The translations under genes were made by a program, and so were the position numbers. Of a stretch of 64,000 bases of DNA, positions 3,989-26,150 are shown piece by piece; positions within the stretch are counted from its first letter, which is position 1; every line of letters starts with the position of its first letter. The stretch is from an uncultured Spirochaetota bacterium (GTDB taxonomy: Bacteria > Spirochaetota > Spirochaetia > SZUA-6 > Fen-1364): the NCBI GenBank assembly GCA_963734545.1, contig CAVTHO010000007.1:320001-384000 (forward strand). Direction: 5' to 3'. The notes under the pieces were generated by a model. The model searched no databases, had not been told where the DNA came from, and saw only the letters and a program-made list of their open reading frames with translations.

Positions 3989-5322
3989 ATGCCTGCAGTT
4001 CTCAGACGTTGTGCGGTCATTCTGGTCCTTTGCGGTTTCGCAGTCGGACCGGCCTTCTCCCAGGAAACGCCTCCCGCCGACAGCCTCGGGTTCAAAATGT
4101 CCATGGGCATCGGTATTCAGAACTTTCACGGCCCGGTAGAGCCGGGCACGTTTTCATCGATCGGGCTCGCGCCGGATATCTCATTCGGTAAATTCGGGAT
4201 CGGCCTGGACCTGACGATCAACTACAACACGGAAAACGGCTCGCTCTATATCCGGAGGGCCGACTGGGTCGTCAACAGCTTTCAGAATTTCCTGGAGGTG
4301 TATCTCCCCAAGATCGCGTACATCCGATACGGCGTGAAGGGCGATCCTTTGTTCCTGAAGCTCGGCTCTTTCGCGGATGCGACCCTCGGCGATGGTTTCA
4401 TCATGGGAAACTACAATAACATGCTGTTCATGCCCGGACCAGCGCCACTTCGGTCTGCAGGCGGATCTGGATGGAAGACTTTTCAACGCGCCCTTCTTCG
4501 GCTTCGAATCTGTCATCGGAAATCTCGCCCGGATGGACGTGATGGGCGGGCGCTTGTATGTGCGGCCCCTTGCCGGTACCGGACCTGCCGGTTCTGAACA
4601 ACCTGGAAGTCGGTTTCACCGCAGCGATGGACACCGACCCTTTCTTCGGCACCATGTCTGTCGGCAATCCTTCCCCGATCGGCGTGATGGGCGGCGATAT
4701 TCGCGTCCCCATCGTCGACATCAAGGACGCGTTCTCTCTGCTCGCGTTCACCGATGTCGCCACCATCCAGACCAAGAGCTGGGGCGGCATGGTAGGGGTG
4801 AGCGGCAGGATCATCAGCATCTTCACGTACGGTCTCCAGCTGCGCGCGCTCGGTGAGGACTTCATCCCCGACTACTTCGGTCCCACGTACGACCTTCTGC
4901 GGGACCAGCAGTACCTCATCGTGCGGACCGGAGGATTCTCACCGGCCATGCTGGGGTGGCTGGCAAGCGTGGGCACGTCCTTCCTTGGGGACACGATTGT
5001 GTTCAGAGTCACCCTCGATGGCCCGTTCGCCCCGAGCCCCTTCACCAATCGCCTTCTGAGATACCCTCACCTGCGTGGTATATTCACAATCGCGGAGGGG
5101 GTCGTGCCGGGGATTTCATTCGATTTCAGCTACGACAAGAAAGCCCTCGCGACGCTCCCTGACCTGGTCAGCGCAGAAGATGCCGCCATTCAGGCGCAGC
5201 TCAACTTCAGGACGGGCCCCGCGGTCATATCCTTCCTCTACAAGATCGTATTCGACCCGACCCAATCCCCGCACCCGTGGCGCGTCACTTCCGGGCTGCA
5301 GAGCTCGATTGCGCTCTTCTAG
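3989..5322 (+). CDS. Exported predicted beta-barrel protein, paralogue of the C-terminal part of the next gene; two apparent frameshifts (~4435, ~4580)
   Basis: ORF pieces 3989-4597, 4377-4856 and 4558-5322 join into one protein. Signal peptide (…GPAFS-QE); C-terminal Phe (SSIALF). Confidence 0.8.
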
Positions 5323-5337
5323 GAAACGGAGGACAGT

Positions 5338-7545
5338 ATGAGGATCAGAGCCACTCTCGCGGTACTGGCAGCCCTCCTGGCGCTGCCGGGCCTGCTTTTT
5401 GCGCAGTCGGCACCTGCGGCGGCAAAGCCGCCGGCCATATCCGTGACCCTCGCCTATCACGAAGACAACAGCGGCACGTTCGACGTCAAGGACGGGAAGG
5501 GCGCATCCGTCACCATGCAGGACGGGGACGACATGCAGCTCGGCTGGACCGTGGTCACCGGCAAGGGAGACCTGGCCGAGCTGAAACTGAACCATACGGG
5601 CACGATCATCAAGATCGCCCAGAACACCAATTTCACTCTCACGCAATTGCGCTCAGAGACGGGAGGCCAGGATGTGTTCAGCCTGGCCTTCGGAAAAGTC
5701 CGTACGGTTGCCGGCAGGGCGTCCGGCAAGGACCAGTACCAGATCAGGACCCAGTCGGCGGTGTGCGGTGTGCGCGGTTCCGACATCGTGTTCGAGTACC
5801 AGGAAGGTGCTTTCGCCCGGCTCTTCACCCTCGAAGGGACGGGCTGGATCCAGAACGCCGCGGGAAACGCGATCGACGTGGCGCAGGGACTGTTCGCGGA
5901 CGCGCTGGGCGCCGCATTCACCGCGGTGCAGATCGCTCCGGACGTGCTCGGCGGTCTGGTCAGCGAGATGAAGTTCAACAGGCTGGATGTGAACGAAACC
6001 ATGGCCGTCAACAAGGCTTACCAGGAAACGCTCGGGACCCCGGCAACGGAGCCGGCACCGGGCCCGACCACGCCCCCGGCGCCGAAGACCAACTCGGCCC
6101 TGGACAACTTCATGACGGCGCTGCGCGACATCATGGGCCTCGAGATCGGCTCCGTCACCATTGGCGGCACCACGTGGGCAAAGGTGGTGCTGCAGCCGAC
6201 ATTCAAGACGGGCAATCTGAAGGCCGCGCTCTATCTGCCCCTCATCTACCACGACGACATGTTCAATCCGAGCGACTACTACAGGCCGGCGGGCAACAGG
6301 GAGTGGAGCTTCGGAACGGATCAACCGAATACCATCGCCGGCGTCGAGGACTTTGCCGTGGACGTCCTTCTCAAGATCAAGTACATCGAGTGGGGACGGC
6401 AGAGAGATCCCTTCTTCTTCAAGGTAGGAAACCTCAACGACATCACCATCGGGCACGGCCTGATCATGCGTGATTTCGCCAACGACGCCGACTTCCCCTC
6501 GGTGCGCCGCATCGGCGTGAATCTCGGCCTGGACCTCGGCGGCTTCGGAGTGGAGGCGATGGTCAACGACGCGGCAGATCCCGAGGTCTTCGGCGGCAGG
6601 ATGTACATCCGTCCGATTCCGGGCGTCAGGGCGGCTCTCGGCTTCTCGACTCTTGTGGACATCAATCCCGCCCGGGACTTCATCGATATTCCCGCCGGCG
6701 CTGTCGGTCCGGTCCCGGCGGGAAGTCCCATCTTCATCAGTCCGGGCATCGACCTTGACCTGCCGTTTGTGGAGAGTGATCCTTTCAGCCTGGTGGCTTT
6801 TGCAGACGGAGCGCTCATGCTGCCGTACTTCCGCTCCTCCCCGAGCATCGGCCTCACGGGCGGCACGGTGATCAATTCGGGGTTTGCCTCCGACGCGGTC
6901 TATGACAAGTCGGCTGCCATGCCCTTCAAGAACTGGGGATTCGCCACGGGGCTGTTTGGAAACCTGATCATCCGCGACTTGACCTGGCGGCTGGAGTTCC
7001 GTGACTACACCGGCGTATTCGTCCCGCAGTTCTACAGCTCCGGCTATGAGCGGCAGCGGAACACGCTCGTGCACAATGTGCTCGCCTACCTGCACGACCC
7101 GGCTGACCCGGTCTGGAATACCCAGAATATGGGCATCTTCGGCGAAGGCGGCATCTCGCTGGACCGGCTCTTCAGCCTCAAGCTCAGCTACTTCTGGCCC
7201 TGGGACAGGAACTCGGCGGGCGATTTCACATTCCTGAATGACGATTTCGCCGTGAAGTTCATCCTGCAGAAGGGCGTCATCCCTGTGGTCAACATCTGGG
7301 GATCCATCTCGTACGAGAGGACGAACTTCGTCCGTTCGATCCAGCACGGTGTGAATCTGTTCGATGCAAACACGGTGGTGAGCACATCGATCAATTACCC
7401 CGTGACGGATAATCTCGACGTGACGCTGCTGTACACCACCACGGCGCAGCGGGACTCGTCGGGCAACCTGGTCTATGCGAGCGCGGGAGACCTGCTGCCG
7501 AAGCTGGACACGTCGCTCTCCATCCAGATGCAGGTCCACCTCTAG
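5338..7545 (+). CDS. FecR-domain protein fused through a Pro/Thr linker to a predicted beta-barrel
   Basis: Signal peptide; FecR-type motif IRTQSAVCGVRGS; linker PATEPAPGPTTPPAP; GGAGG RBS. Confidence 0.85.
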   Translation: MRIRATLAVLAALLALPGLLFAQSAPAAAKPPAISVTLAYHEDNSGTFDVKDGKGASVTMQDGDDMQLGWTVVTGKGDLAELKLNHTGTIIKIAQNTNFTLTQLRSETGGQDVFSLAFGKVRTVAGRASGKDQYQIRTQSAVCGVRGSDIVFEYQEGAFARLFTLEGTGWIQNAAGNAIDVAQGLFADALGAAFTAVQIAPDVLGGLVSEMKFNRLDVNETMAVNKAYQETLGTPATEPAPGPTTPPAPKTNSALDNFMTALRDIMGLEIGSVTIGGTTWAKVVLQPTFKTGNLKAALYLPLIYHDDMFNPSDYYRPAGNREWSFGTDQPNTIAGVEDFAVDVLLKIKYIEWGRQRDPFFFKVGNLNDITIGHGLIMRDFANDADFPSVRRIGVNLGLDLGGFGVEAMVNDAADPEVFGGRMYIRPIPGVRAALGFSTLVDINPARDFIDIPAGAVGPVPAGSPIFISPGIDLDLPFVESDPFSLVAFADGALMLPYFRSSPSIGLTGGTVINSGFASDAVYDKSAAMPFKNWGFATGLFGNLIIRDLTWRLEFRDYTGVFVPQFYSSGYERQRNTLVHNVLAYLHDPADPVWNTQNMGIFGEGGISLDRLFSLKLSYFWPWDRNSAGDFTFLNDDFAVKFILQKGVIPVVNIWGSISYERTNFVRSIQHGVNLFDANTVVSTSINYPVTDNLDVTLLYTTTAQRDSSGNLVYASAGDLLPKLDTSLSIQMQVHL

Positions 7546-12342: not shown

Positions 12343-12371
12343 TGTATATACGAGTTCCGCATCTTTGTCAA
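12343..12371 (-). promoter_or_regulatory. sigma70-like promoter of acpP
   Basis: Minus strand TTGACA-N17-TATACA. Confidence 0.55.
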
Positions 12372-12427
12372 AGGCCGCGCGGCGCGTTGCACCAGGGTGC
12401 CCGATTCACTATATTCGTGAGCAAGCA

Positions 12428-13099
12428 ATGAGACTCCTCTGCATAGCCGACCATGTGGACCCGCTGATCTACAGCACGGGCCTCAAGACCCGGTACGGCA
12501 ATGTCGACCTGGTCTTGAGCGCGGGAGACCTCACGCTCGACTACTATGACTTCATCGTCAGCACGCTGAACAAGCCGCTGTACTTCGTGTACGGAAACCA
12601 TCACCTGGAAGGGCGGAATGAGGAAGGGATTGCAGCGGATCCCTTCGACAAGAACCGAAACTGCGAGCCGGGGACAGCCTCGGCATGCGGGGCGACATGC
12701 CTGGAGGGAAAAGTCGTGCGGAAGAAGGGGCTCATCCTGGCCGGACTGGGAGGGAGCATCTGGTACAATGGGGGAGAAAACCAGTACACCGACTTCACCA
12801 TGTTTCTCGTCATCCTGCGGATGGTGCCCCGCCTTCTCTGGCACAGGATCATGCACGGAAAGTTTCTGGATATCCTGGTCACCCATTCGCCTCCGTACGG
12901 GATAAATGACCTGCCCGATCCCTGTCACACGGGGTTTCGTGTCTTTCTCTGGTTCATGAGGACATTCAAGCCGAGCTACCTCGTGCACGGACACGTGCAT
13001 TTGTACGACAGGAACGCTGCCCGGGAGGCGCATTACGGAGCAACGACGATTATAAACGCGTATGACCACATCATGATCGATCTGGGGAACACAACATGA
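12428..13099 (+). CDS. Calcineurin-like metallophosphoesterase
   Basis: Motifs ADH, AGDL, GNH, THSPP, HGHVH; start moved to ATG 12428. Confidence 0.9.
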   Translation: MRLLCIADHVDPLIYSTGLKTRYGNVDLVLSAGDLTLDYYDFIVSTLNKPLYFVYGNHHLEGRNEEGIAADPFDKNRNCEPGTASACGATCLEGKVVRKKGLILAGLGGSIWYNGGENQYTDFTMFLVILRMVPRLLWHRIMHGKFLDILVTHSPPYGINDLPDPCHTGFRVFLWFMRTFKPSYLVHGHVHLYDRNAAREAHYGATTIINAYDHIMIDLGNTT

Positions 13100-14028
13100 G
13101 CGACCGAATGTACCAGACCCTTGCGCGCAATGACTTCAGCAAGCTGCGGACGCAGCAGTCCTTCAGGAAGATACTCTCCCTGCTCAAGGCGCAGAAGGAC
13201 GAAATGCTCTCCCTGGGGGACGTACGCTCTCTGCTGCGGCCCGATTCGGAGGTCTACCGGGGAATGCAGACCGTTGCCATCGCGAAGATCATTGGCAGCG
13301 AAGGGCGGTACAGGGATTTCGACAGGGCGTTCCTGCCCCGGCACGACAAGCTGATGGGCCGCTGGATGAGGGTGGACCTGGCGCACTACCAGAATGTCCC
13401 CCTGCCGCCGATACAGCTTTTCGAGATTGGCGGCGTGTACTTCGTGCGCGACGGCAATCACCGGGTGTCCGTGGCCAAGTCGCAGGGGGCGGAGTTCATC
13501 GACGCCGAGGTGATCTCCCTTTCATCGGAGATTTCTCTCTCCTCCCACATGACGCTGGAGGAGCTCAAGCGCGCCGTCATCGACTTCGAGAAGCGCAGGT
13601 TCTTCGAGACCACCCGGCTCGACATCCATCGGCCGGACTGCGTCCTGGAGTTCACCGAGGTAGGGCGCTACGATGAGCTGCTCTGTCACATCAGCGAGCA
13701 CAAGTGGTACATCAATCTCAAGAAGACCGAAGAGATCCCCTTCGAGCAGGCCGCGGTTTCCTGGTACGACCATGTGTACTTCCCGATCATCTCGATCCTG
13801 CGCGAGGCGAAGCTCCTCGCCGCCTGCCCGCAGGCCACGGAGGCGGACCTGTACGTGTTCATCGGCAAGCACTGGAGCGAGCTGAACAGGCGCTATGGAC
13901 CCCTCTTCACGCTGGAGGAGGCGGCCGAGGATTTCACGGTGAGCTCACAGAAGTCCGGTCTCCCGGGAAGGGCCCGCGTGATGTGGGGAAGGCTGAAAAG
14001 CGCGCTGCGGCTCCTCTTCCGCCGCTGA
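13096..14028 (+). CDS. ParB/Srx-like domain protein (DUF4032-type)
   Basis: PPIQLFEIGGVYFVRDGNHRVS ParB/Srx signature; ATGA overlap with the phosphoesterase gene. Confidence 0.8.
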   Translation: MSDRMYQTLARNDFSKLRTQQSFRKILSLLKAQKDEMLSLGDVRSLLRPDSEVYRGMQTVAIAKIIGSEGRYRDFDRAFLPRHDKLMGRWMRVDLAHYQNVPLPPIQLFEIGGVYFVRDGNHRVSVAKSQGAEFIDAEVISLSSEISLSSHMTLEELKRAVIDFEKRRFFETTRLDIHRPDCVLEFTEVGRYDELLCHISEHKWYINLKKTEEIPFEQAAVSWYDHVYFPIISILREAKLLAACPQATEADLYVFIGKHWSELNRRYGPLFTLEEAAEDFTVSSQKSGLPGRARVMWGRLKSALRLLFRR

Positions 14029-14032
14029 CGCG

Positions 14033-14407
14033 TCACCCTCCCTGGACGTAGGCCTCGTATTCCTTTTCCGTCAGCAGGTTCTGAAGCTCGTCCGGGTTTT
14101 TCATCTCGAGCACGATCAGCCAGCCTTCGCCGAGGGGATCCTTGTTGATGAGGGCGCAGCTTTCCTCCGAAGCGAGAACTGCATTCACCTGGGCAACGGT
14201 GCCCGAGACCGGGGCGTAGATCTCGCTCGAGGATTTCAGGGAATCCACCGTGCAGGCCACCTCTCCACGCTCGAGGCGCCGGCCCGGCGCGGGGAGCTCG
14301 ACATAGGCGATATCGCCCAGCTCCCGCTGAGCGAAATCCGAGATGCCGACCTTCGCGCGGCTGCCTTCTGTGAGCACCCAGGTATGGTCTTTCGTGTAGA
14401 ACAGCAT
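14033..14407 (-). CDS. gcvH: Glycine cleavage system H protein (lipoyl carrier)
   Basis: YTKDHTW, VGISDFAQRELGDI, lipoyl-Lys in VDSLKSSSEIYAPVSG, INKDPLGEGW. Confidence 0.93.
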   Translation of the reverse strand: MLFYTKDHTWVLTEGSRAKVGISDFAQRELGDIAYVELPAPGRRLERGEVACTVDSLKSSSEIYAPVSGTVAQVNAVLASEESCALINKDPLGEGWLIVLEMKNPDELQNLLTEKEYEAYVQGG

Positions 14408-14416
14408 GTGTCTGCC

Positions 14417-16900
14417 TCAGTCGAGCAGAGGATTGCCGCCGGAAGCGCCCCCCGGCTCTGAACCGGGACCTCCCCCGTCCAGCGGCTGGCCCGCCATGCC
14501 GCCTCCCCCCTGGAGGTCCGGATTGGCAAGCAGGGAGTTCTTCAGATTCTCCAGCGTCGAGGTCGCCTGGGTGGAATTGTATTCGTCCAGCTCGTCAAAG
14601 GTCTTCGGTTCCGTGCCGGCGAGGAAGACCTCGGTGATGGTTTTCTTGGTGTAGGCGGTCGGCAGGAGCCCGGAGGTCGCGCTGACCACCATGTCCACGA
14701 GCCCCGTTTCGGGCCGGGAAAACCTCTTGGGCGGCAGGTCCTTGTGTATTGCCTTCATGAATCTGGCCCAGGTGGGACCGGCGATGGCGGCTCCCGTCAG
14801 CGCGGTGCCGAGGGACCGGTTTCCCTGGTCGAACCCGTACCAGACAGCGGTGGTGACGTAGGGGGAGAAGCCGACGGTCCAGGCGTCCGACCAGTTCTGG
14901 GTGGTTCCCGTCTTGGCCGCAAAGGGCTGGCCCTTGTCGTTCCAGATGTCGAGCATGCCGCCGACGCCGCCGAGTGTCCCTTCCTTGATGGTGCTTTGCA
15001 GGATGCTCGTCATGATGTAGGCCGTCTGCCTGCTCATGATCTGCGCCGAATCGCCCTTCCTGCTCTCTTTGGCCAGGATCTCCTTTGCCGGCTCCAGGAT
15101 GATTTTTCCATTCCTGTCTTCTATGTACCGGATGGACACCGGCACGACCTCGCGGCCGCCCGTGGCGAAAACAGAGTACGCGCGCGCCATCTCGAGCGGG
15201 GAGACGGTGATGATCCCCAGGCCGAGGGGATAGTACCGCGGAAACCGGCGATCGATCTCCGCCGGGTCCGTGACACCCAGCATCCGGCTCGCTCTCTGGA
15301 TTGCCGCGTCGAACCCGATGCCGTCCAGGACCCTGAGGGAGGGCACATTCATGGATTCCGCCAGGGCGTCACGCAGCAGCACCCTGCCGTGCCATTGTCC
15401 CTTGTAGTTGAGGGGCTCGTAGAGTGTCCCGTCGGCGTTGGTGAACACCACGGGAGCATCCATGATCATCGTCGCGGGCGTGAATTTGCGGGAGTCGATG
15501 GCCGCCGAATAGTAGAGGGGCTTGAAAGCCGATCCCGGCTCGACCTCCGACTGCGTGGCCCGGTTGAACTGGTCCGCGCTGGAGAACTGCCGTCCTCCCA
15601 CCATGGCGAGGATGTATCCATTGGAGGGGTCGATGGAGACCAGCGCACCCTGCACCTGGGTCTTGCGCGTGACGGCGAGGCCCGAATCGATTCCCGAGGA
15701 CACGATGGCCTGCGCCTTCTGGAGGGAGAAAAGCGACGCGACCATCTCCACGACAGGCCCCATCTTCCTGGCATAGTCCCGCTTGGCGTTCCCGGTGGCG
15801 TTCCGGTTGCGGTACATCAGGTCATCGATGTCGAAGGAAAGCCCGAGCATGTCGATGAGCGGAAGGTATGACGCGTTGGAAGCCGCGATCTTGGCCCCGG
15901 AGCTGGAGAGATAGAGGGAGTTCACCTTGTCGATGTCTTCCGCCATTCTCTTGTCCGCTTCCCTCTGGTAGTCGAGGTTGAGCGTGGTGTGCACCACCAG
16001 GCCGTCGGTGAGATAGTTGTACGATCCGACCAGGAGGTCCTCCAGCTGGCCCCTGATGTACTCGCTGAAGTACGGTGCCTTGTCTTCCCTGTCGAGAAAC
16101 GCGCTGCTGTTGGACCGCGTATAGTCGTACTTTGTCCAATACTCGTCGAAGGAGTCGTCCGCCTCCTTCTTTGCCACGTAGCCCAGCTTGACCATCTGGT
16201 CGAGAATTTCCCGCTGGAGACGCCGCGCCCGCTGCGGGTTCTTGATGGGGGAGTTGACCGACGGGCTGGCAAGCTGGATGACGAGCATGGCGGATTCCGC
16301 GACCGTGTCCTCCTCGACGGGATGCTTGAAAAAGAACTTGCTGGCCGCCTGAACGCCCTGGGTCCCGGCCCCGAAGGGCATCTCATTGAGGTACATCTCC
16401 ATGATCTCTTGCTTGGTGTAGCGCCGCTCCATCTGGATGGCCCACCACAGCTCCACCAGCTTGCGCTTGATGGAAATGTCCGTCCTGTCCGCATAGAGCC
16501 TGCCGGCGAGCTGCTGGGTGATGGTGCTCGCGCCGGAGACGTATCGGCCCGTCATGATGTTGAAAAGCGCCCGGGTCAGACCACGGAGGCTGAACCCGTG
16601 GTGGGAATAGAAGTTCCTGTCCTCCCGGGTCAGCAGGGCGTCAACGAGGTGCTGGGGCACCTGGTCGATCGTGATCGGCTCCCGGCTCTGCTCGCCGAAG
16701 AACTGCGTAATCTCCCTGTCGTTGATGTCGAGTATCTTCGTGGGGAGGGCGGGCTGATGCTCGCCGAACTGCTCTTTCACGGAAATGTTGCGCGTGGCCG
16801 CCAGGGCGATGCCCAGTGTCACTCCCAGAAGAATGGCCACTGCAAAAGACACTATCAACAATGTCTCGAAGACCGTGTTCTTTTTCGGGTTCAGATGCAC
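14417..16900 (-). CDS. mrcA: Class A penicillin-binding protein (PBP1A family)
   Basis: TM anchor; transglycosylase motifs EDRNFYSHHG, GASTITQQ; transpeptidase motifs SAFK, SMN, KTG. Confidence 0.93.
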   Translation of the reverse strand: MHLNPKKNTVFETLLIVSFAVAILLGVTLGIALAATRNISVKEQFGEHQPALPTKILDINDREITQFFGEQSREPITIDQVPQHLVDALLTREDRNFYSHHGFSLRGLTRALFNIMTGRYVSGASTITQQLAGRLYADRTDISIKRKLVELWWAIQMERRYTKQEIMEMYLNEMPFGAGTQGVQAASKFFFKHPVEEDTVAESAMLVIQLASPSVNSPIKNPQRARRLQREILDQMVKLGYVAKKEADDSFDEYWTKYDYTRSNSSAFLDREDKAPYFSEYIRGQLEDLLVGSYNYLTDGLVVHTTLNLDYQREADKRMAEDIDKVNSLYLSSSGAKIAASNASYLPLIDMLGLSFDIDDLMYRNRNATGNAKRDYARKMGPVVEMVASLFSLQKAQAIVSSGIDSGLAVTRKTQVQGALVSIDPSNGYILAMVGGRQFSSADQFNRATQSEVEPGSAFKPLYYSAAIDSRKFTPATMIMDAPVVFTNADGTLYEPLNYKGQWHGRVLLRDALAESMNVPSLRVLDGIGFDAAIQRASRMLGVTDPAEIDRRFPRYYPLGLGIITVSPLEMARAYSVFATGGREVVPVSIRYIEDRNGKIILEPAKEILAKESRKGDSAQIMSRQTAYIMTSILQSTIKEGTLGGVGGMLDIWNDKGQPFAAKTGTTQNWSDAWTVGFSPYVTTAVWYGFDQGNRSLGTALTGAAIAGPTWARFMKAIHKDLPPKRFSRPETGLVDMVVSATSGLLPTAYTKKTITEVFLAGTEPKTFDELDEYNSTQATSTLENLKNSLLANPDLQGGGGMAGQPLDGGGPGSEPGGASGGNPLLD

Positions 16901-16906
16901 TCAAAA

Positions 16907-16936
16907 AGAATAAGAAGCTTGGGGGGGGCATGTCAA
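16907..16936 (-). promoter_or_regulatory. sigma70-like promoter of PBP1A, probably leaderless
   Basis: Minus strand TTGACA-N18-TATTCT, ending 6 nt before GTG 16900. Confidence 0.6.
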
Positions 16937-16970
16937 TGGTGCGAGGGCCCTGTCACGCCCTTCACTGTGT

Positions 16971-17081
16971 GCGGAGTACCGCTCAAATCACCGGGAGCGG
17001 CCTCCGGCCGCGGTCGTGATTTGTGCGGGTACCGCTCAAATCACCGGGAGCAGCCTGCGGCTGCCGGTCGTGATTTGTGCG
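16971..17081. repeat. Two tandem ~48-bp nested palindromic units (period 53)
   Basis: 16980-17027 and 17033-17081: CGCTCAAATCAC…GTGATTTGTGCG outer arms with inner GCGGCC/GGCCGC or GCAGCC/GGCTGC stems. Confidence 0.9.
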
Positions 17082-17085
17082 CGAC

Positions 17086-17119
17086 AAAAAAAGAGGCCGA
17101 CTCCCGAAGGAGCCGGCCT
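17086..17119 (-). terminator. Rho-independent terminator
   Basis: Minus strand AGGCCGGCTCC-TTCG-GGAGTCGGCCT followed by C and T7. Confidence 0.9.
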
Positions 17120-17183
17120 GCCTGATGTGGTGCCTTTCGACATAGTAAACTGGGAGGGGAACTACATCTAGGACACCAACACC
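17086..17183 (-). ncRNA. Candidate small RNA: long hairpin with C-rich loop plus terminator
   Basis: TGGTGTC/GGCACCA and GATGTAGT/ACTATGTC stems around loop TCCCCTCCCAGTTT; no ORF; promoter-like motif directly upstream. Confidence 0.55.
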
Positions 17184-17187
17184 TTTC

Positions 17188-17216
17188 TTATCGTCATTAA
17201 GTTCCCGTCAACTTTA
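17188..17216 (-). promoter_or_regulatory. sigma28 (FliA)-like promoter
   Basis: Minus strand TAAA-N17-GACGATAA versus consensus TAAA-N15/16-GCCGATAA; spacing is 1-2 nt long. Confidence 0.4.
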
Positions 17217-18134
17217 ATTCTTTTTCATGGCGAGCAGCTGGTAGGGATCCCGCGTCCCTGCCTTTGTCCGCATTTCGAAGTGCAAATGGGGACCCGTTGC
17301 GCGCCCCGTCCGGCCCACGGATCCGATGATCGCTCCTGTGGTGACCTTCTGTTTCATAGTAACACAAATCGAGGAAAGGTGTCCATAGACCGTCTGATAG
17401 CCGCCGGGATGGGTAATGACCACGAAATTGCCCAGAACGTCGTTTGCGCCCACCTCATCCACGGTTCCGTCGCGCGCCGCATGCACCCCGGTTCCATCGG
17501 AAGCTCCGAAATCCATGCCGCTGTGAAACTCCGGGCTCCCCGTGAACGGGTCCTTGCGCCAGCCGTACATCGAGGTGATCTGCGGCTTGTCAATGGGAAG
17601 CCGGAAGAGGATACCTAGGAAATAGGATCGCTCCATGGGAGTAAATGCTTCTCCCGGGAAGAAATACACGGCATCCGCCCGCCCGTCCCGCATGACGACC
17701 AGCGACTGGGCCTTTTTCCCGTCGGCGATCCGGGTGGCGAGCATCATGTTCTCGAGGTCTCCGCGCGGGGGGTTGCTGAGGAACAGGCCTTCCTGGCTGG
17801 GAATCAGAATTCGTGATTTTGCCCCGAATGCGGCTTTTCCCGCCGTTCCGTTCAGGGTCGCAAGAGTGTCATAACGCATCCCCATCCGGGCATTGAGGGA
17901 GAACAGATCATCCGCGCCTCTCTTGGGATACTCGAAGATGTCCACCGGAGGGAAAACCACCTCGCCCCTGATCTGGGAAAGCCTGCGAAACTCCTCCAGC
18001 GCCGACTGCTGCTGGACGAAAAGGGCGTCATCCCGGCTCAGCGCGCGAATCTCGGGGTACTCATGCGCGGCGGCGCCTGCGGACGCGATCTGGAGACAGC
18101 AGAACAGGGTGGTGAGGGCGACCGTGCGTTTCAC
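17214..18134 (-). CDS. M23 family peptidoglycan metallopeptidase
   Basis: Signal peptide; HSGMDF, YGHL, TGPHLHFE. Confidence 0.92.
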   Translation of the reverse strand: MKRTVALTTLFCCLQIASAGAAAHEYPEIRALSRDDALFVQQQSALEEFRRLSQIRGEVVFPPVDIFEYPKRGADDLFSLNARMGMRYDTLATLNGTAGKAAFGAKSRILIPSQEGLFLSNPPRGDLENMMLATRIADGKKAQSLVVMRDGRADAVYFFPGEAFTPMERSYFLGILFRLPIDKPQITSMYGWRKDPFTGSPEFHSGMDFGASDGTGVHAARDGTVDEVGANDVLGNFVVITHPGGYQTVYGHLSSICVTMKQKVTTGAIIGSVGRTGRATGPHLHFEMRTKAGTRDPYQLLAMKKN

Positions 18135-18602
18135 TCACTTCCATTCTCGGCAGGATTCAGCCCCTCCTTGTGTCTCTTCGAAGCGCGCCGCGCGAGCCCG
18201 AGGGCCCAGAGCAGGCCCGCCCACACGGCGAGCGCCGGGACCGCCAGGATCCACATTCCCCTGTAGAGCAGAACGGCAGCGACATATCCGCCCGCAAGCG
18301 CGACGATTGTGAGCAGGATCGTCAGAATCACGGAAAGAACCGTGCGCCGCGGCCTGCCCGGGTCCCGGGGGGACGCGCGGCTCCTGATGAGTCTCCTGAC
18401 TGCCAACGCGAGCAGGCCCCCGCCGGGCAATGCAGAAAGCGAAGATCGTATATGCCTGTCGCTGTGAAGTTGCGAAAAGCCACAGCGGCCAGGCTATTGC
18501 GAACCCGAACACGGCGCTGCCGACCAGGAGGAGAATCAGGAACCCGACCTTGCGGAGGGCCTCGAGCCAGCTCTCGAGTCTCTTTTGCAATCCTCCTCTC
18601 AC
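18131..18602 (-). CDS. Small integral membrane protein, apparent frameshift near 18425
   Basis: Hydrophobic helices split across ORFs 18135-18602 and 18131-18430; overlaps both neighbours by 4 nt. Confidence 0.7.
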
Positions 18603-19525
18603 GGCGTCCCCAGGTCGGCGAGGGATTTGCGGTACCCGTCGGCTTCGGTGGATCTTCCAAGGGCGTCCGTGGCTGCAATGAGCTCTACCAGGGCTTTTCG
18701 CATGCCGGGCTTGGATCCGAGGGTGACGAACACCAGGTATGAGCGCCGGAAATAGTCGTATGCCGCGGCCTGGTCCTTGCGCCGCGTGGCAATCAGGCCC
18801 AGCGCGTAAAGATCCTGCGCGATACCGGGCGGGCTTTCGATCTTCTTGTCGAGCGACAGCGCAGTCTCCGCGCTCTTCACCGCTTCGTCATACCGTGCCT
18901 GCAGGGAGTACACGGAGGCGATCATGTAGTGATCCGCCGCCGCTGATTCGACAAGCTTGTTGGCCGTGTTGATTTCCAGCGATTTGTTGAAATACTCGAG
19001 GGCCCCGGCGAGGTTGCCCAGGGTCTTCTGGGCAGTGCCCAGGTTGTGGTAGAGCTGGGCCGTCTGGGCGGGTGTGCGGGAGCTCGCCGGCTTTGCGAGC
19101 GCCTCCTCGAAAACTGCCAGCGCCTTCTGCGGATCCCCCTTTGCGAGGTACAGCTCCCCGAGACTGCCGGACGCCAGGAAGAAAAGGGAAGGGCTGGCTG
19201 TCCGGGCGCGTTCCCGGGCTTTGAAAAGAATGTCTTCCGCCATGTCGAGGGAGCCCATGGCCATGTAGGTTTTCCCGATGGCCACGTACGACTGAGTGAT
19301 CCCGTCCCCGTTGTCGATCGAGGTGTTCTGGTTCAGCGACTGGGTGAAGAACTGCAGGGCAAGGTCGTACCGTCCCTGTCGGAAATAGGCCTCCGCGTAG
19401 CTGCTGTTCTGCGCCGCCTGGTCTCTCACGGTCGTGACGGTGTCCGATTTCGGCGGCGCGGACGAGCAGGAGACAATCAGGGAGAGGCACAGCCCGATGC
19501 CCGCCCGGAGAAGCTTCTCTTTCAT
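18599..19525 (-). CDS. TPR lipoprotein
   Basis: Spirochaete-type lipobox LIVS-C; TPR repeats. Confidence 0.88.
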   Translation of the reverse strand: MKEKLLRAGIGLCLSLIVSCSSAPPKSDTVTTVRDQAAQNSSYAEAYFRQGRYDLALQFFTQSLNQNTSIDNGDGITQSYVAIGKTYMAMGSLDMAEDILFKARERARTASPSLFFLASGSLGELYLAKGDPQKALAVFEEALAKPASSRTPAQTAQLYHNLGTAQKTLGNLAGALEYFNKSLEINTANKLVESAAADHYMIASVYSLQARYDEAVKSAETALSLDKKIESPPGIAQDLYALGLIATRRKDQAAAYDYFRRSYLVFVTLGSKPGMRKALVELIAATDALGRSTEADGYRKSLADLGTP

Positions 19526-20654
19526 CAGAAGTTTTCGTCCCTGTAGCTGTTCAGCGGCGATGTCTGCTGCGGCCGGGGCGGCACGCCCCCTTTGAGAAGG
19601 GGATTGTTCTTCGCCGCCTGGAGCACGTCAGTTGCATTGTCCAGCGTCGTGCTGCCCTTTTCCAGGATGCTCGAGACCTGCGGCTGGGTCTGGTTGATGA
19701 ACTCGGCGAAACCGCGAAGCTGCGCGATGATGGCGTTTGCGTTCTTGAGCGCCGTGTCCACCTGGTTGTAGAGCTCATTCGAGTCGTTGAGGAAAGTGTC
19801 GATCGAACCCTTTGGATCCAGCAGTCGTTTCGCCAGCCCCTGCGTGTTCTTCAGATCCGCGGTCATTGACTTCAGGTTCTGCGAGATTTCGTCCAGATTC
19901 GTCGAAAGGTCACCGACGACCCCTCGTGTCTTCACGGAAATGTCGGCGATGTTGTCCGAGATGACGGTGATCCTGTCCAGCAGCGTGTTGATCTTCGCGC
20001 TCATGTCGTCGACGGCGCGGTTCACCTTTCCGGGGGTGACCGACAGGTTGTTCACCATGGTTCCCAGGGGCCCGCTCCTGCCTTCGATTGCGTCATCCAC
20101 GGAGGTCGCCACCCTCCTGATCTCACCCACCGTCAGGCGCGCCTCGTCCAGCAGGGGATTGAGCTTGGCGATGACGGATCCGATCACGTCCTCTCCCTTG
20201 GGAATCTCCACAAGGTTCTGTTCGACGAGACGGCGGCCCTCTTCGCTGTCCAGGGCGGGTATGAACGCGCCCTCGGGCTGCGGCGGCAGACTGGTTGCTG
20301 CCGGGGTGGAACCTGAGCGACACGCCCAGCCCGATGGAGCTGGATGTCAGCTCCAGGACCGAGTTGGGCTTCACCCTGTCGTAGTACGTGTCCTGCACGT
20401 AGAAGCGCACGTCCACCTGGTTCTGCGCATTCGAGCGATATGCGCGAGATCTTGCCGATCTCGAAGCCCTTCAGCATGATCGGCATGCCGGATGTCAGGC
20501 CGTCCCCGGAGGCGAACCGGCTCGTGAAGGAGTAGTTCTTGGCGAACCACCGCTGGTTGATCCCGATCGAAATGAGAATCACCGCGACACAGACAATCGC
20601 GACAAGCACGAAGATGCCCACGATCTGGTCTGCGAATCGGATCTTGAACTTCAT
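19525..20654 (-). CDS. mlaD: MlaD/MCE family protein, two apparent frameshifts (~20270, ~20425)
   Basis: N-terminal TM; FASGDGLTSGMPIMLKGFEIGKI MCE motif; long helical C-terminus; pieces 20184-20654, 20123-20416, 19525-20211. Confidence 0.85.
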
Positions 20655-20664
20655 TCGCTTTTCG

Positions 20665-20694
20665 ATCCTATCCTTCCCGTGCGCCCGCTGTCAA
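20665..20694 (-). promoter_or_regulatory. Internal sigma70-like promoter ahead of mlaD
   Basis: Minus strand TTGACA-N18-TAGGAT. Confidence 0.45.
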
Positions 20695-21494
20695 TTCTGG
20701 CCGTCCTGCTGGTCCCCGCCCAGCAGCTCGAGGAGGTCGGTATCGTAGGAAGCGATCTCTCCCAGGACCTGGGAAAGGATCGCGCGGGCCCGCACGTTCC
20801 GCGTTCTTTTCACCTCGTCGAACTCACCCGTCACGAGGACATTTCCCTGGTCCATGACCACGAGCCTGTCCGCCAGGGTGGCCGTGAGCTGCGGGTCATG
20901 GGTCACGGCGATGATCGTGCTGCCGCGCGCCTTGAGGTCATGGATCATGCGGATGATTCTTTCGGTCATGCTGAAGTCGATGGAAAGCGTCGGCTCGTCC
21001 AGGAACACGAGGGAGGGCTCGGTCACCAGGGCGCGCAGGAAGGAGGCGATCTTTCTTTCCCCGCCGGAAAGGGCGGCAGGCCGCTGGCCGGCTGATTCCT
21101 CCATGCCGACCCTCTCCAGGGCGCGCGCGACCCGCTTCGTGATATCGGTGCGCGAAAGCCCTGGAAAATGAACTTCGAGGGGAAGGGAAAGATTCTCGAA
21201 CAGGGTCTTGTTCTCCCAGAGCGCGCCGTCCTGGAACACGAACCCGTTGGACTTGCGCAGCTCGCGGACTCCCCGCTCGGAAAGGAGGAAAATGTCCTGT
21301 CCCCGCAGGAGAACCTTGCCCGTGTCGGGAGGGATGAGGCCGGCGGCAACCTTCAGCAGGGTGCTCTTTCCGCAGCCCGACGGTCCCATGATCACCGTGC
21401 TCCTCCCCTCGGGGAAAGCCACGTTGATGCCGCGCAGGGCTTCATAGGTGCCGAGGGTGAGCCGCACGTCGACCAGGCTGATCGCATCATCCAT
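20691..21494 (-). CDS. mlaF: ABC ATP-binding protein, MlaF type
   Basis: GPSGCGKS, LSGGE, LDEPT; lies between mlaE and mlaD. Confidence 0.9.
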   Translation of the reverse strand: MDDAISLVDVRLTLGTYEALRGINVAFPEGRSTVIMGPSGCGKSTLLKVAAGLIPPDTGKVLLRGQDIFLLSERGVRELRKSNGFVFQDGALWENKTLFENLSLPLEVHFPGLSRTDITKRVARALERVGMEESAGQRPAALSGGERKIASFLRALVTEPSLVFLDEPTLSIDFSMTERIIRMIHDLKARGSTIIAVTHDPQLTATLADRLVVMDQGNVLVTGEFDEVKRTRNVRARAILSQVLGEIASYDTDLLELLGGDQQDGQN

Positions 21495-21506
21495 GCCGCG
21501 CCGTCC

Positions 21507-22283
21507 TCATACGTAGTAGATCAGCGTGATCAGGGCGTCGGCCAGGAAGCACAACACGAAGCCCTGGCCGACCGCCTTGATGGCGGCGCGGGGTATCTCC
21601 GTGACGGACGTGCTCACCTTGAAACCCTGGAAGGTGGCCACCACGGAGATGATGACCCCGAAAACGAAGCTCTTGACCACCGTGGACACGATGTCGCGGA
21701 GCTGGATCGTGGCGAGCAGCGCCCGGAAGTATTCGACGAACGGCACCGGCTTGATGAGCTGGGACACGAGGAACGAGCCGAACAGCCCGAAGAAGTTGAA
21801 GTAGATCGTGAGCGCCATCACGGAAATCGTCACCCCGAGGACCCGGGGCACGACGAGGTACGAGACGGGATTGATGCCCACCGATATGTAGGCCTCGATC
21901 TCGTGGGACACCACCATGTTGCCCAGCTCGGTCGCGATGGCGGTGCCCGAACGCGCGATGATGATGAACGCGGTGAGGATCGGTCCCAGCTCTCGCGTGA
22001 TCACGACGATGAGGATCGAATAGAGAAGGCTCGTCTGGCCGAATCGCGGCAGGATGCTCCCGCCTTCCACGATGATGACCGCGCCGATGGACAGCGCGAT
22101 CAGCGACACGATGCTCAGAGCCTCGACGCCGGTGAAGAGAATCTGCAATACCAGGACCTTGAAGGCCACCTGCCTGCGGCGGACGAAAAGGATCGTCTCC
22201 TTCAGGACCTGAAACAGGAACCCCAGAGCGTACGCGTAGTCACGGGTCTTCCTGTTGGCCCACCTGCCGAGCGTCGCGACCAT
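21507..22283 (-). CDS. mlaE: ABC permease, MlaE type
   Basis: RELGPILTAFIIIARSGTAIATELG; LVVPRV. Confidence 0.92.
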   Translation of the reverse strand: MVATLGRWANRKTRDYAYALGFLFQVLKETILFVRRRQVAFKVLVLQILFTGVEALSIVSLIALSIGAVIIVEGGSILPRFGQTSLLYSILIVVITRELGPILTAFIIIARSGTAIATELGNMVVSHEIEAYISVGINPVSYLVVPRVLGVTISVMALTIYFNFFGLFGSFLVSQLIKPVPFVEYFRALLATIQLRDIVSTVVKSFVFGVIISVVATFQGFKVSTSVTEIPRAAIKAVGQGFVLCFLADALITLIYYV

Positions 22284-22299
22284 CGCCGGCGAGTATAGT

Positions 22300-23142
22300 T
22301 CAGGCGGCAGGGTGATGCAATGGAAGCGCCTCGAGAAAGGCGTCGGGAATCTCGCGGCCCCCCGCGCTGCGGCCGAGCACCCGCTGCGGTATGTGTTCTC
22401 CGTGAAAATCCGACCCGCCGGTGACGATCATGCCGAGGCTGCGGCCCAGACGGTCAAACCGCCTGCACTCTCTGACCGGCTGGTTGGGATGCCATGCCTC
22501 TATCCCGGACACGCCCTGCTCCTTGCAGGCGGCAAGGTGCGTGCGGAGAGCGGGCCCGCGCAGACCCAGGGAAATCGGGTGGGCGATCACCGCCACACCG
22601 CCCGCGGCCCTGATAAGGTCGGTTGCTTCCCTCAGCCCGAGACACTCGCGCGGCTCGTAGAACTCCATGCCTTTGCCGATGAACCGCTTGAACGCGGCGT
22701 CGATCGAGTGCACGACCTTTTTCCGCACGAGAAGCCGGGCAAAGTGGGCCCTGCTCACGATGTCGCCGCCCGCCACCTCGGCCAGCTCCTCCATGGTCAG
22801 CGGAATGCCCGCCCGCTGGAACTTCTCCACCATCCGACCATTCCGCCCGCGCCTGCCGGTTTGCACCCGGGTTAGTGCCGCTTCCAGATTCTCGCGGTGC
22901 GCGCCCAGTGCGAGGCCGAGCAGGTGGAATTCTCCCACTGCGCTCTCGATCTCGATCTCCACGCCGGCGATGAAGATCATCCCCGTGCCCTCGGCAGCTC
23001 GGCGGGCCGTTTCCACGCCCGCCAGCGTGTCGTGATCCGTGAGCGCCAGGGCCTTGAGCTCCAGAGACAGCGCAAGCTCGACGAGCCGCTCCGGCGTGCA
23101 GGAGCCGTCGGACGCCGTGGAGTGCGTGTGGAGATCTATCAT
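22300..23142 (-). CDS. PHP-domain phosphoesterase
   Basis: DLHTHSTASDG, TDHD, AHP, GGSDFHG. Confidence 0.93.
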   Translation of the reverse strand: MIDLHTHSTASDGSCTPERLVELALSLELKALALTDHDTLAGVETARRAAEGTGMIFIAGVEIEIESAVGEFHLLGLALGAHRENLEAALTRVQTGRRGRNGRMVEKFQRAGIPLTMEELAEVAGGDIVSRAHFARLLVRKKVVHSIDAAFKRFIGKGMEFYEPRECLGLREATDLIRAAGGVAVIAHPISLGLRGPALRTHLAACKEQGVSGIEAWHPNQPVRECRRFDRLGRSLGMIVTGGSDFHGEHIPQRVLGRSAGGREIPDAFLEALPLHHPAA

Positions 23143-23179
23143 TTGACATCAATATAACTCATTGCGTAATCTCAGGTCC

Positions 23180-24475
23180 ATGGACCCGACCTTCCGTGCT
23201 CCCCGCGGGTTGGGCGGGCTGTACATCCCGCCGCCCGATAAATCGATCACGCACAGGGCGCTCATGCTTGCGGCCGTCGCTTCGACGGCGAGCCGGATCG
23301 GGAACCCGCTTGCCACCGGTGATTGCATCTCCACGCGGCGCTGCCTGGAGGCCCTCGGCGCGGTCTTCGACGCGGTGGACGGCAGGTGGGAGGCGCACGG
23401 CGTCGGCCTCCGCGGTCTTCACGAGCCGCGTCGCGCGCTGGACGCGGAAAACTCCGGCACGACCACGCGCGTCATTTCCGGCCTGCTCGCCGGGCAGCCG
23501 GTGTTCGCCGTGCTGACAGGTGATGACTCGCTGCTGGGCAGACCGATGATACGCGTGGTGGACCCTTTGCGGTCAATGGGCGCGAGAGTGGAGGGCAGGG
23601 AGGGCGGCAGATTCGCTCCCCTCTGTTTCCTGCCCGGCCCAGGCACCTTGAAGCCCCTCTCCTGGACCCTCCCCGTTGCCAGCGCGCAGGTGAAGAGCTG
23701 TCTGCTGCTCGCCGCGCTCCGCGCGGCGGGCCCCAGCAGGATCGGAGGGCGGATCGGGTCACGGGATCATACGGAGAGAATGCTCCGGGCGCTTGGAGTG
23801 CGCGTGGAGGAGATCGACGGAGGCTTGTCCATCGAGCCGGTGGAGTCTCTGCCCGGATTCGACATGGAGGTCCCGGGAGACATCTCCTCCTCCGCTTTTT
23901 TCATCGCGGCGGCCCTCATATCGGGCCGCGATCTCAGCATCCGTGACTGCGGCGTCAATCCCACCCGCTGCGGATTCCTGGAGGTCGTGCGCCGCATGGG
24001 CGCAACCGTCGACGTGCAGGAGGAGCGCACTTCGCTCGGAGAACCCGTGGGAACGATCACCGTCGCGCCCGGAACCCTTCGGGGGACCCGGGTCACGGCG
24101 CCGGAGATCCCTGATTTGATAGACGAGGTGCCCCTCATCGCCGTTCTCGGCCTCTTCGCGCAGGGCGTGACCGAGGTGAGAGGCGCGGAGGAGCTTCGTC
24201 TCAAGGAGAGCGACCGTCTTGCCATGATCGGGCGCATGGCGGCAAGCCTGGGGGGAAAAGTGGAGCTGTTCGAGGACGGCTTTTCGGTCGAAGGCCCGCA
24301 GGCGCTCCGCCCGGGTCACGTGGATCCCCGCGGTGATCATCGCATCGCAATGGCGGCCGCGGTCGCATCGATCGGTATCAGGGACGGGGTGCGGATCCGG
24401 GGCTTCGAGTGCGCGCAGGTCTCCTATCCGGACTTCATCCGGGATTTTGCCGCGCTCGGCGGGGAGAAAGCGTGA
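23180..24475 (+). CDS. aroA: EPSP synthase
   Basis: PDKSITHRA, NSGTT, SAQVKS, KESDR, DHRIAM; ATG 23180 preferred, behind TTGACA at 23143. Confidence 0.95.
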   Translation: MDPTFRAPRGLGGLYIPPPDKSITHRALMLAAVASTASRIGNPLATGDCISTRRCLEALGAVFDAVDGRWEAHGVGLRGLHEPRRALDAENSGTTTRVISGLLAGQPVFAVLTGDDSLLGRPMIRVVDPLRSMGARVEGREGGRFAPLCFLPGPGTLKPLSWTLPVASAQVKSCLLLAALRAAGPSRIGGRIGSRDHTERMLRALGVRVEEIDGGLSIEPVESLPGFDMEVPGDISSSAFFIAAALISGRDLSIRDCGVNPTRCGFLEVVRRMGATVDVQEERTSLGEPVGTITVAPGTLRGTRVTAPEIPDLIDEVPLIAVLGLFAQGVTEVRGAEELRLKESDRLAMIGRMAASLGGKVELFEDGFSVEGPQALRPGHVDPRGDHRIAMAAAVASIGIRDGVRIRGFECAQVSYPDFIRDFAALGGEKA

Positions 24476-25492
24476 GCAGCACGCTCTCCTTCACCATCGG
24501 CGGCGTACGGACGGAGGTTGTCTTCAGCTCGCGCGTCGCGTTCGGCAATCCTTCCGTGACGGTTTTCGATTCGCACACGTACCCGCTGTTCGGCGCCGGC
24601 ACGGCGAACCCTGTCACCCTCCCTGCCGGGGAAGCGTCGAAGAGCTGGCTGAGCGTCCAGGCGGTCCTCGAGGGGTGCACCGCGAGCGGCATGGGCCGGG
24701 ACGAGGAGATCGCGGGCGTGGGCGGCGGTGTGGTGTGTGATATCACCGCCTTCGCGGCCTCTCTCTACATGCGGGGATGCGGGCTCACCCTGGTGCCCAC
24801 CACTCTGCTTGCCATGGTGGATGCCGCACTCGGCGGCAAGACGGGTATCGATTTCCTGGGATTCAAGAATCTCGTCGGCACATACTATCCGGCTTCGCGA
24901 ATCATCATTGCCGCCTCCGCGGTGCGGAGCCTTCCGGACCGCGAGTACCTCTCGGGTCTGGCGGAGGTCATCAAAACGGCGCTGGTAGGGGACAGTGAGC
25001 TCTTCGCGCTTCTTGCGGCCGAACGACCTGCCGTGATGGCGCGGGAGCCGACAGATCGTGGAGGAGATGATCCGCCGGAGCCTGCTCGTCAAAGGAAAGA
25101 TCGTGGAAGAGGACCCGAGAGAATCGGGCATCCGTGCCGTCCTGAATCTGGGGCACACCTTTGGACATGCCCTCGAGACGGCCACCGGGTTCAACGGGTG
25201 GACACACGGGGAGGCGGTTGCGTGGGGCATGGGAAGGGCGCTGGCTGCCGGCGTGCGCATGGGGATCACGGATCCCGGGTTCGCGCACCAGGTCCAGTCG
25301 CTCCTGCGGGCGTACGGGTTCAGGCTGGAGGCGCCGGTGACCTACGAAGCGCTTCTCCCCGGTCTTCAGCACGACAAGAAACGGCGCGGGGGCGGCCTCA
25401 GGCTCGTCATCCCGTGCGGCGCGGGCGATGTGCGGATCCGCGAGGCGGTCGAGGAGGATCTTGCCGCGGTGCTGAAGGACGGACACGCATAG
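24472..25492 (+). CDS. aroB: 3-dehydroquinate synthase, apparent frameshift near 25053
   Basis: [22 protein letters not shown] in the first frame; [18 protein letters not shown] in the second. Confidence 0.92.
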
Positions 25493-25514
25493 GGAAAAAG
25501 GAGCGGGCGGATTC

Positions 25515-26150
25515 ATGAAAATCGACAAGAGCACATTCGACAGGCACGTGCGCTTCTTCGGCCAGGGAGCGGTGATCTTCAAGGAAGACGAGGAAGGCAA
25601 CGAGATGTTCATCATCATCCAGGGCGAGGTGGAGATCCGCAAGGCCACGGGTACTTCCTCCAGCAAGATCCTGACCACGCTCCACAACGGCGACATGTTC
25701 GGAGAGATGGCCGTGATAGAAAAGCAGTCCCGGTCGGCAACCGCGGTGGCCGTGCAGCCCACCAAGGTCCTCGTGCTCAACGAAAAGCTGTATGAATCGA
25801 TGGTCGGCACCAATCCCGATTTCGCGCGCAAGATGAACCGCGTCCTCTCGGAGCGGATCCGAAGGGCGGACGCGATCATCCAGAATATCATGACCACGAA
25901 CAGGCAGAACCAGCTCTGGTCCGGCCTGGTGCAGTACGCGCGGGAGCGCGGCGTTTCGACATTCAAGGGGAGCAGGGTCAATGCAGCCGAGTTCACCGTG
26001 TGGGCCGTCGAGCACCTGGGGATCAGCGAAAAGGACGTCCAGGCCCTCCTCGCCCAGCTCATCAAGCGCGAGGCGCTGACCTATTCCGCGCGGGGCAAGG
26101 ACGAGATACTCATCGAGCTCAAGGAAGGCACGGTCTTCCCGGAGAGCTGA
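25515..26150 (+). CDS. Cyclic-nucleotide-binding (Crp/Fnr-type) protein
   Basis: GDMFGEMA…RSATA cNMP pocket; possible C-terminal winged helix. Confidence 0.88.
   Translation: MKIDKSTFDRHVRFFGQGAVIFKEDEEGNEMFIIIQGEVEIRKATGTSSSKILTTLHNGDMFGEMAVIEKQSRSATAVAVQPTKVLVLNEKLYESMVGTNPDFARKMNRVLSERIRRADAIIQNIMTTNRQNQLWSGLVQYARERGVSTFKGSRVNAAEFTVWAVEHLGISEKDVQALLAQLIKREALTYSARGKDEILIELKEGTVFPES

Follow-up and report, generated by a model that had tools for sequence, protein, structure and literature searches.

A conserved element on the minus strand of a 64-kb stretch of genome from an uncultured Spirochaetota bacterium (contig CAVTHO010000007.1; the whole 64,000-nt stretch is hereafter the window) is most likely a single-copy, undescribed small RNA (sRNA) gene of ~98 nt. 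It lies at 17216-17086, between an M23 peptidase gene and a PBP1A gene, in the 3′ untranslated region (3′ UTR) of the operon that ends with the M23 gene. We consider it highly probable that this is a functional RNA element of the minus strand. Read on that strand, it consists of TAAAGTTG-n13-GACGATAA, then a 19-pair hairpin with the 14-nt loop UCCCCUCCCAGUUU, then an 11-pair terminator with T7. A sequence-only reading of the same DNA had placed a TAAA-N17 motif, a hairpin, its loop and a terminator here, and all of them lie on the minus strand where it had put them. The parts are given below; invariance refers to four sequences, those of the window and of three related loci.

17210-17216, minus strand: −35-like block TAAAGTT, overlapping the TAA stop codon of the M23 gene in the window; invariant in all four sequences
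17196-17209, minus strand: promoter spacer, 14 nt between TAAAGTT and GACGATAA (n13 from octamer to octamer)
17188-17195, minus strand: −10-like block GACGATAA; invariant in all four sequences
17086-17184, minus strand: predicted sRNA of ~95-100 nt, its 5′ end placed a few bases past the −10 block and its 3′ end in the T-run
17124-17183, minus strand: hairpin 1, with an 11-pair lower stem, two small internal loops and an 8-pair upper stem
17147-17160, minus strand: apical loop UCCCCUCCCAGUUU, the presumed seed; invariant in all four sequences
17094-17119, minus strand: intrinsic terminator stem-loop, 11 pairs (8 of them G-C) with a TTCG loop, common to the M23 operon and the sRNA
17086-17092, minus strand: T7 tail of the terminator, 6-7 T across the four sequences

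Conservation of the element in related loci

Relatives were sought by a scan of genome contigs with the M23 protein as query. Among 39 candidate stretches three were confirmed, all from spirochaete metagenome-assembled genomes (MAGs): L001 (Spirochaetaceae; a 1510-nt contig only), L002 (Spirochaetia) and L003 (Spirochaetota), with DNA identities to the window of 84%, 71-76% and 86-91%, respectively. The gene order M23 - element - PBP1A is the same in the three loci. The sequence-only reading had staked itself in advance on conservation of the loop and stem in relatives, and had pointed to the DNA downstream of M23 orthologues as the place to look; the element is present there in all three loci, with loop and stem kept beyond the level of the flanking coding DNA.

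Conservation runs from TAAAGTT to the T-run, the four sequences diverge on either side, and mean column identity across the RNA part is 95%. In the comparison with L002, the 98 nt at 17183-17086 are 92.9% identical, against 72.1% overall, 68.5% in the M23 coding sequence (CDS) and 75.8% in the PBP1A CDS. Only 0.22% of 98-nt windows are equally conserved, and the best of them in the 8.3-kb L002 alignment (17197-17100, 93.9%) falls on the element, the rest of the intergenic region being 20-33% identical. A covariance model made from these four copies and searched, unfiltered, through 84,868 bases scores exactly one match in each locus at 122.8-128.5 bits, and the next best match reaches 16.5 bits.

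Predicted folding of the minus-strand RNA

Hairpin 1 opens with GGTGTTGG at 17183, separated from the −10 block by the four bases GAAA. Four of its 19 pairs are G-U in the window, and these become A-C mismatches on the plus strand; the loop reads TCCCCTCCCAGTTT at 17160-17147. On the minus strand, the 137-nt stretch folds to −54.4 kcal/mol (z −4.52) and hairpin 1 alone to −21.6 kcal/mol (z −3.99), with none of 200 shuffles as good in either case. The plus strand is weaker, at z −2.58 for the 137-nt stretch (2 of 200 shuffles as good) and z −2.26 for the hairpin (5 of 200). This bears out the earlier description of a long hairpin with several G-U pairs that works better as minus-strand RNA. Equally, the terminator that had been described as C(UUCG)G followed by U7 was recovered, with 11 pairs, a TTCG loop and T7. 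Its G+C-rich stem-loop and U-run are those of an intrinsic (Rho-independent) terminator, and 17119-17094 is both the strongest terminator-like site on either strand of 14000-23500 and the only strong minus-strand terminator downstream of the M23 stop.

RNAalifold returns the same two-hairpin structure from the four sequences. Twenty-seven of the 33 pairs never vary and the other six vary on one side only (G-U to or from G-C or A-U), all of them staying paired; every one of the 131 pair cells is a standard pair, and pairing falls to 40-53% when the partners are slid by 1-3 columns. All 19 pairs of hairpin 1 are kept in the four sequences, three of them varying on one side, and the terminator is kept with one-sided changes and a 1-nt deletion in L003.

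We found no open reading frame (ORF) of at least 20 aa wholly inside the element. The longest overlapping minus-strand ORFs (34-56 aa) were rejected as candidate small genes, extending as they do into unconserved flanks or the M23 CDS. Also rejected, by eye, was a 9-codon ATG frame that opens in the −10 block: its stop differs in L002 and L003, and the proposed promoter would not transcribe it.

A promoter-like motif upstream of hairpin 1

The pattern TAAA-N13..19-CGATAA matches once on both strands of the 64 kb, at the element itself (17216-17188, N17), where 0.06 matches are expected; 6 of 100 shuffles had at least one. The TAAAGTT/CGATAA motif likewise occurs once in the window and once per related locus, always at the element. 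Between its two blocks, the 14-nt spacer is the least conserved piece of the element, equal in length in all four sequences and variable at 7 of its 14 positions; against L002 it is 50% identical and both flanking blocks are 100% identical. Invariant blocks held at a fixed distance round a free spacer make a promoter-like pattern. In the window, the first bases of TAAAGTTG are the TAA stop codon of the M23 gene (17214-17216). In L002, the M23 stop is TAG and TAAAGTT begins 4 nt past it, so the block is not retained merely as a stop codon. The bipartite motif supports an independent promoter, and we think it somewhat probable that the sRNA has one of its own.

The E. coli sigma-28 consensus, as quoted in PMC2859248, is TAAAGTTT-n11-GCCGATAA. 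The −35 octamer of the element is TAAAGTTG in the window and L001 and TAAAGTTC in L002 and L003, and each agrees with TAAAGTTT at 7 of 8 positions; the −10 octamer GACGATAA, common to the four sequences, agrees with GCCGATAA at 7 of 8 and includes an exact CGATAA. In spirochaetes, the mapped sigma-28 promoter of Treponema denticola flaB2 is given with a −10 of CCGATAA and a −35 of TTAA (PMC9481697), and sigma-28 sites are predicted 5′ of Leptospira flagellin genes (PMC5243855). Promoters from T. denticola have also been assayed in E. coli (PMC9481697). Sigma-28 dependence of the candidate promoter is the best available assignment, and a tentative one that we rate slightly below an even chance. 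Two other assignments were tried and rejected. For sigma-70, the scanner finds no similar site at 17188-17216 and, by eye, TTGACG of the window is TTGGCG or TTCACG in the relatives, with no acceptable −10 at a distance of 16-18 nt downstream. For an extracytoplasmic function (ECF)-type factor, the motif would be GGAAC, which the window, L001 and L003 have; L002 reads GGTGAAG instead.

The C-rich loop and its possible partners

The C-run of the loop is unpaired with a probability of at least 0.77 in all four sequences. The loop contains CCUCC, a string that we take to be the core of the 16S anti-Shine-Dalgarno sequence, with further C on either side. We give base pairing through this C-rich loop an even chance. 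The Shine-Dalgarno sequences (SDs) of the window are of the GGAGG type, some of them G-extended: the Clp ATPase gene at 60894 is preceded by GGGGAGG, and the ftsY-like gene at 53862 by AGGGAGGA. The string AGGAGGGG, 27-34 nt 5′ of the M23 start, was set aside as too distant from the start codon for an SD. In a sliding duplex scan of the whole window, the top matches other than the element's own antisense are coding or antisense DNA.

Comparison with known RNA families

Across the 64-kb window, Rfam 15 gave no matches at gathering score, in keeping with the earlier proposal of an undescribed RNA. A permissive search of 16700-17400 (E up to 10) gave seven matches, none of them to the 6C, RsaE/RoxS or RepG models; all are below gathering score, and we regard them as chance or as matches to the terminator shape. 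The best, sbrA (RF01489), reaches 22.2 bits against a gathering score of 45 (E 0.046 on the 701-nt search) and the candidate is not a member, although this Listeria sRNA shares with it the shape of a single hairpin plus terminator, aligned over 17088-17171. No riboswitch match to the element was found in either search. A blastn search with the intergenic region for other copies in the window matched only an internal tandem repeat, and the element has no match in the plasmid and phage collections. No spirochaete sRNA that shares the loop or the locus turned up in our literature searches; LdsR, MtrR and OspR of Borrelia are encoded on lp54 and are unrelated by location.

Gene context and the downstream region

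The element is flanked by two genes of the same strand:

17214-18134, minus strand: M23 peptidase gene (Pfam Peptidase_M23, 1.7e-30, and ORF layout), the last gene of a tight row
14417-16900, minus strand: PBP1A-family gene (TIGR02074, 1.5e-170), 3′ of the candidate sRNA element on the same strand

The closely packed minus-strand row that ends at the element encodes a MlaD-like protein, a coiled-coil protein, a tetratricopeptide repeat (TPR) protein, a 155-aa protein of no known family and the M23 peptidase. The G+C content of the window is 62.6%, and among NCBIfam models its proteins weakly match some that are specific to Leptospira and spirochaetes. A promoter-like site, TTGACA-n18-TAGGAT, lies at 20665-20694 (minus), 10 nt 5′ of the ATG of the MlaD-like gene (20184-20654); it may be the start of a five-gene operon that would terminate at the sRNA terminator and have a very short leader. 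The 155-aa ORF (18135-18602, minus), directly upstream of and overlapping the M23 gene, has no Pfam or NCBIfam match at the thresholds used. The same is true of many other long ORFs (for example, at 106-3819, 12365-14028 and 24971-26065), a 1237-aa ORF at the window start among them.

Upstream of the PBP1A gene, a promoter of the TTGACA-n18-TATTCT type (16898-16936, minus; 1385-1425 in L001, 6020-6060 in L002 and 6116-6156 in L003) has an invariant −35 and ends exactly 6 nt before the GTG in all four sequences. The PBP1A start has no SD, and among 57 start regions scanned in the window it is the one that pairs least strongly with the loop. Because the promoter ends 6 nt before the GTG and no SD is present, the PBP1A mRNA is likely to be leaderless. 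The spacer of this promoter (16912-16925, minus) is a coding-strand C-run: the window and L001 both have C8, L003 has CCCCGCCC, and L002 has CCCCTCCC, which (at ~6030-6040) is identical to the core of the sRNA loop. With the loop, the plus-strand complement of the spacer forms one of the better duplexes (−21.5 kcal/mol); this match may be a coincidence.

The DNA between the terminator and the PBP1A promoter is unconserved and varies widely in length. In the window it holds, at 16976-17081 (minus), two tandem copies of a 53-54-nt unit that are 92% identical (106 nt in all). Each unit folds to a long hairpin, the two together reach −58.6 kcal/mol (z −4.43), and their inner stems differ by paired changes (GCAGCC/GGCUGC vs GCGGCC/GGCCGC). 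Since the units are absent from L001-L003 and from the rest of the window, they resemble an inserted element of the repetitive extragenic palindromic (REP) or miniature inverted-repeat transposable element (MITE) kind.

In L003, the M23 protein (5001-5926) is 55% identical by tblastn, vs 85% nucleotide identity of the M23 CDS, and the reading frame of the PBP1A start region (~6150-6500) looks broken by eye. This mismatch of protein and DNA identity suggests indels in the MAG assembly as the likeliest cause; pseudogenes are also possible.

Discussion

In the mechanism that we propose, a promoter with its −35 block over the M23 stop codon would start transcription a few bases before 17183, the RNA would fold into one long G-U-containing hairpin displaying the invariant 14-nt loop UCCCCUCCCAGUUU, and transcription would stop at the strong intrinsic terminator of the M23 operon. 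The loop would bind G-rich SD regions (GGGAGGGG-like) on mRNAs from other parts of the genome and so keep ribosomes from binding; the target sites over SDs would be CUGGGAGGGGAA-like. Under a sigma-28 (FliA)-type promoter, the RNA would be produced alongside late flagellar genes; these sigma-28 and motility parts are plausible, not proven, and the spacer length counts against them.

Whether the element is an sRNA gene with its own promoter that would act by base pairing through its loop seems to us evenly poised, and a number of results weigh against it. The sigma-28 promoter of the sequence-only reading stands in its octamers, at 7 of 8 positions each, and not in its spacing: the spacer is n13 in all four sequences where the E. 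coli consensus has n11, and the 11-bp distance is found in none. No flagellar genes or fliA with which to calibrate a local consensus were recognised in the window or the related loci, nor was any other sigma factor in the window. A duplex scan of the loop against 57 start regions of the window (~2% of the genome) gave a best value of −19.2 kcal/mol and no outlier, and the sliding scan of both strands (42,648 windows; mean −6.96, sd 3.71) gave no convincing target; because these scans covered ~2% of the genome, a missing target says little either way. Moreover, most SDs would offer a CCUCC loop moderate pairing. In the comparison with L003, identity is 94.9% for the RNA vs 87.5% overall, which puts the RNA only in the top 6% of windows. 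The compensatory changes for which the sequence-only reading had proposed to look did not appear, with no double change among the 33 pairs in four sequences, and the pairing shuffle control was uninformative, as 500 of 500 shuffles reach the observed values. The sample is four sequences, including two close relatives (84-90% nucleotide identity), and the effective sequence number of the covariance model is 0.68, which places proof of the structure by covariation out of reach; the predicted two-hairpin structure is compatible with every substitution seen and not proven by covariation.

The most probable of the alternatives, which we nevertheless think unlikely, is that the element belongs purely to the 3′ UTR of the M23 operon and lacks its own promoter, acting as an mRNA stabiliser or in decay control, or giving rise to an sRNA processed by a ribonuclease. 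The element directly follows the last gene of a packed row and uses the only strong terminator there, which upholds that much of the structured 3′ UTR alternative already named by the sequence-only reading. Processed 3′ UTR-derived sRNAs are described for Campylobacter jejuni, where CJnc230 is cut from flgE mRNA (PMC11187230), and for Borrelia (PMC13734083). With the terminator shared by the operon, a processed or cis role fits much of the same evidence, a further point against an independent gene. However, a stabiliser hairpin needs no invariant 14-nt loop, and this alternative leaves unexplained both the invariant TAAAGTT and GACGATAA at fixed spacing round variable bases and the retention of TAAAGTT in L002 off the stop codon. 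The two routes may also coexist, as is stated for the 3′-derived sRNAs of Borrelia, which arise by both processing and independent transcription (PMC13734083). Chance is the explanation to which we give the least credence: only the terminator would be real, and the hairpin and motif would be accidents of intergenic DNA that happens to diverge slowly. The closeness of two of the three relatives and the lack of compensatory covariation speak for this. Yet the element holds the most conserved 98-nt window of 8.3 kb against a relative that is 72% identical, with adjoining intergenic DNA at 20%, its fold z-scores are −4 to −4.5, and all six stem substitutions keep the pairing.

Two further alternatives grant the element a function of another kind. 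As a protein-binding or sponge RNA, it would bind, for example, a KH-domain protein through the C-rich loop, or titrate G-rich RNA. The near-invariance of the whole 98 nt (95% mean column identity) goes beyond what a seed-only sRNA needs, no mRNA target stands out in the window scans, and the papers that matched the loop string UUCCCCUCCC in a literature search all concern hnRNP K, a KH protein of eukaryotes. A connection with KH proteins of bacteria is, however, speculative, the ~2% coverage of the target scan again means that a missing target tells little, and we hold this role improbable. Very improbable is a cis attenuator or leader governing read-through from M23 to PBP1A, which the sequence-only reading had also offered; hairpin 1 would be the anti-antiterminator, its 5′ arm pairing with the 5′ arm of the terminator. 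PBP1A does lie downstream on the same strand in the four loci and, when the 3′ arm of the terminator is withheld, the window prefers the pairing of the two 5′ arms (−26.4 kcal/mol). But this alternative fold is optimal in one of the four sequences only, hairpin 1 persisting in the other three, and in the full RNA the terminator fold is ahead by ~19 kcal/mol. PBP1A, moreover, has its own invariant promoter and no SD, so that a read-through mRNA would hold an SD-less internal start, and that start is the one with the weakest loop pairing of the 57. The distance from the terminator to the PBP1A promoter is variable and unconserved, with the 106-nt repeat insertion in the window.

As an sRNA, the candidate would be a new example of two known kinds, the 3′ UTR-embedded sRNA with its own promoter and the C-rich-loop sRNA. 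The closest described case of the former is UhpU of E. coli, which also lies at the 3′ end of a non-flagellar gene and, as is proposed here, has a promoter in or overlapping the end of the host CDS with a sigma-28-type motif. Our candidate sits at the 3′ end of a same-strand CDS, ends at the terminator of that gene and, by position, would use it as UhpU does; MicL and DapZ are further sRNAs of this kind. The two have no sequence or Rfam relationship. UhpU is Hfq-associated and proteobacterial, and its fliA dependence has been shown experimentally, whereas the candidate is known from sequence alone, has a spacer of n13 rather than n11, and is hosted by a cell-wall peptidase gene rather than a transporter gene. 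Among C-rich-loop sRNAs, RsaE/RoxS of Firmicutes and RepG of Helicobacter pylori pair through such loops with G-rich or SD sequences. The candidate has a single C-rich loop, where 6C and RsaE have at least two, and belongs to a different phylum from 6C, RsaE/RoxS and RepG. It shares with these three an unpaired C-run in a hairpin loop followed by an intrinsic terminator, and its partner would be a G-rich ribosome-binding region, as for them. The pairing of C-rich loops with G-rich SD regions is described for 6C of Mycobacterium in PMC6486639. Outside enterobacteria, CJnc170 (FlmR) of C. jejuni is a FliA-dependent sRNA (PMC11187230), and thus of the sigma-28 class and tied to late flagellar expression, as the candidate would be. 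Homology evidence between the two is absent, and the motility link of the candidate comes from its promoter motif only.

The candidate is compact and well bounded; its seed and promoter motif are clear, its genomic address is fixed, and it could enter RNA family databases. To our knowledge, hardly any regulatory RNAs have been described from spirochaetes that are free-living or uncultured; the experimental spirochaete literature on regulatory RNAs that we found concerns Borrelia, Leptospira and Treponema. If the sigma-28 assignment fails, the element would be an ordinary, previously unrecorded sRNA or 3′ UTR element. If it holds, the range of sigma-28-controlled sRNAs, known from E. coli and Campylobacter, would gain a third phylum, and one of them would sit beside cell-wall enzymes. 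A bolder possibility, and in our judgement a decidedly unlikely one, is that a FliA-driven sRNA, kept between the genes for a peptidoglycan endopeptidase and PBP1A, couples late flagellar expression to the translation of envelope or cell-wall mRNAs through a loop that mimics the anti-Shine-Dalgarno sequence. Were this true, the geometry of sigma-28 promoters would include a spacer that exceeds the canonical one by 2 bp, and spirochaetes, whose periplasmic flagella adjoin the peptidoglycan, would have their first sRNA connecting the assembly of flagella with remodelling of the wall.

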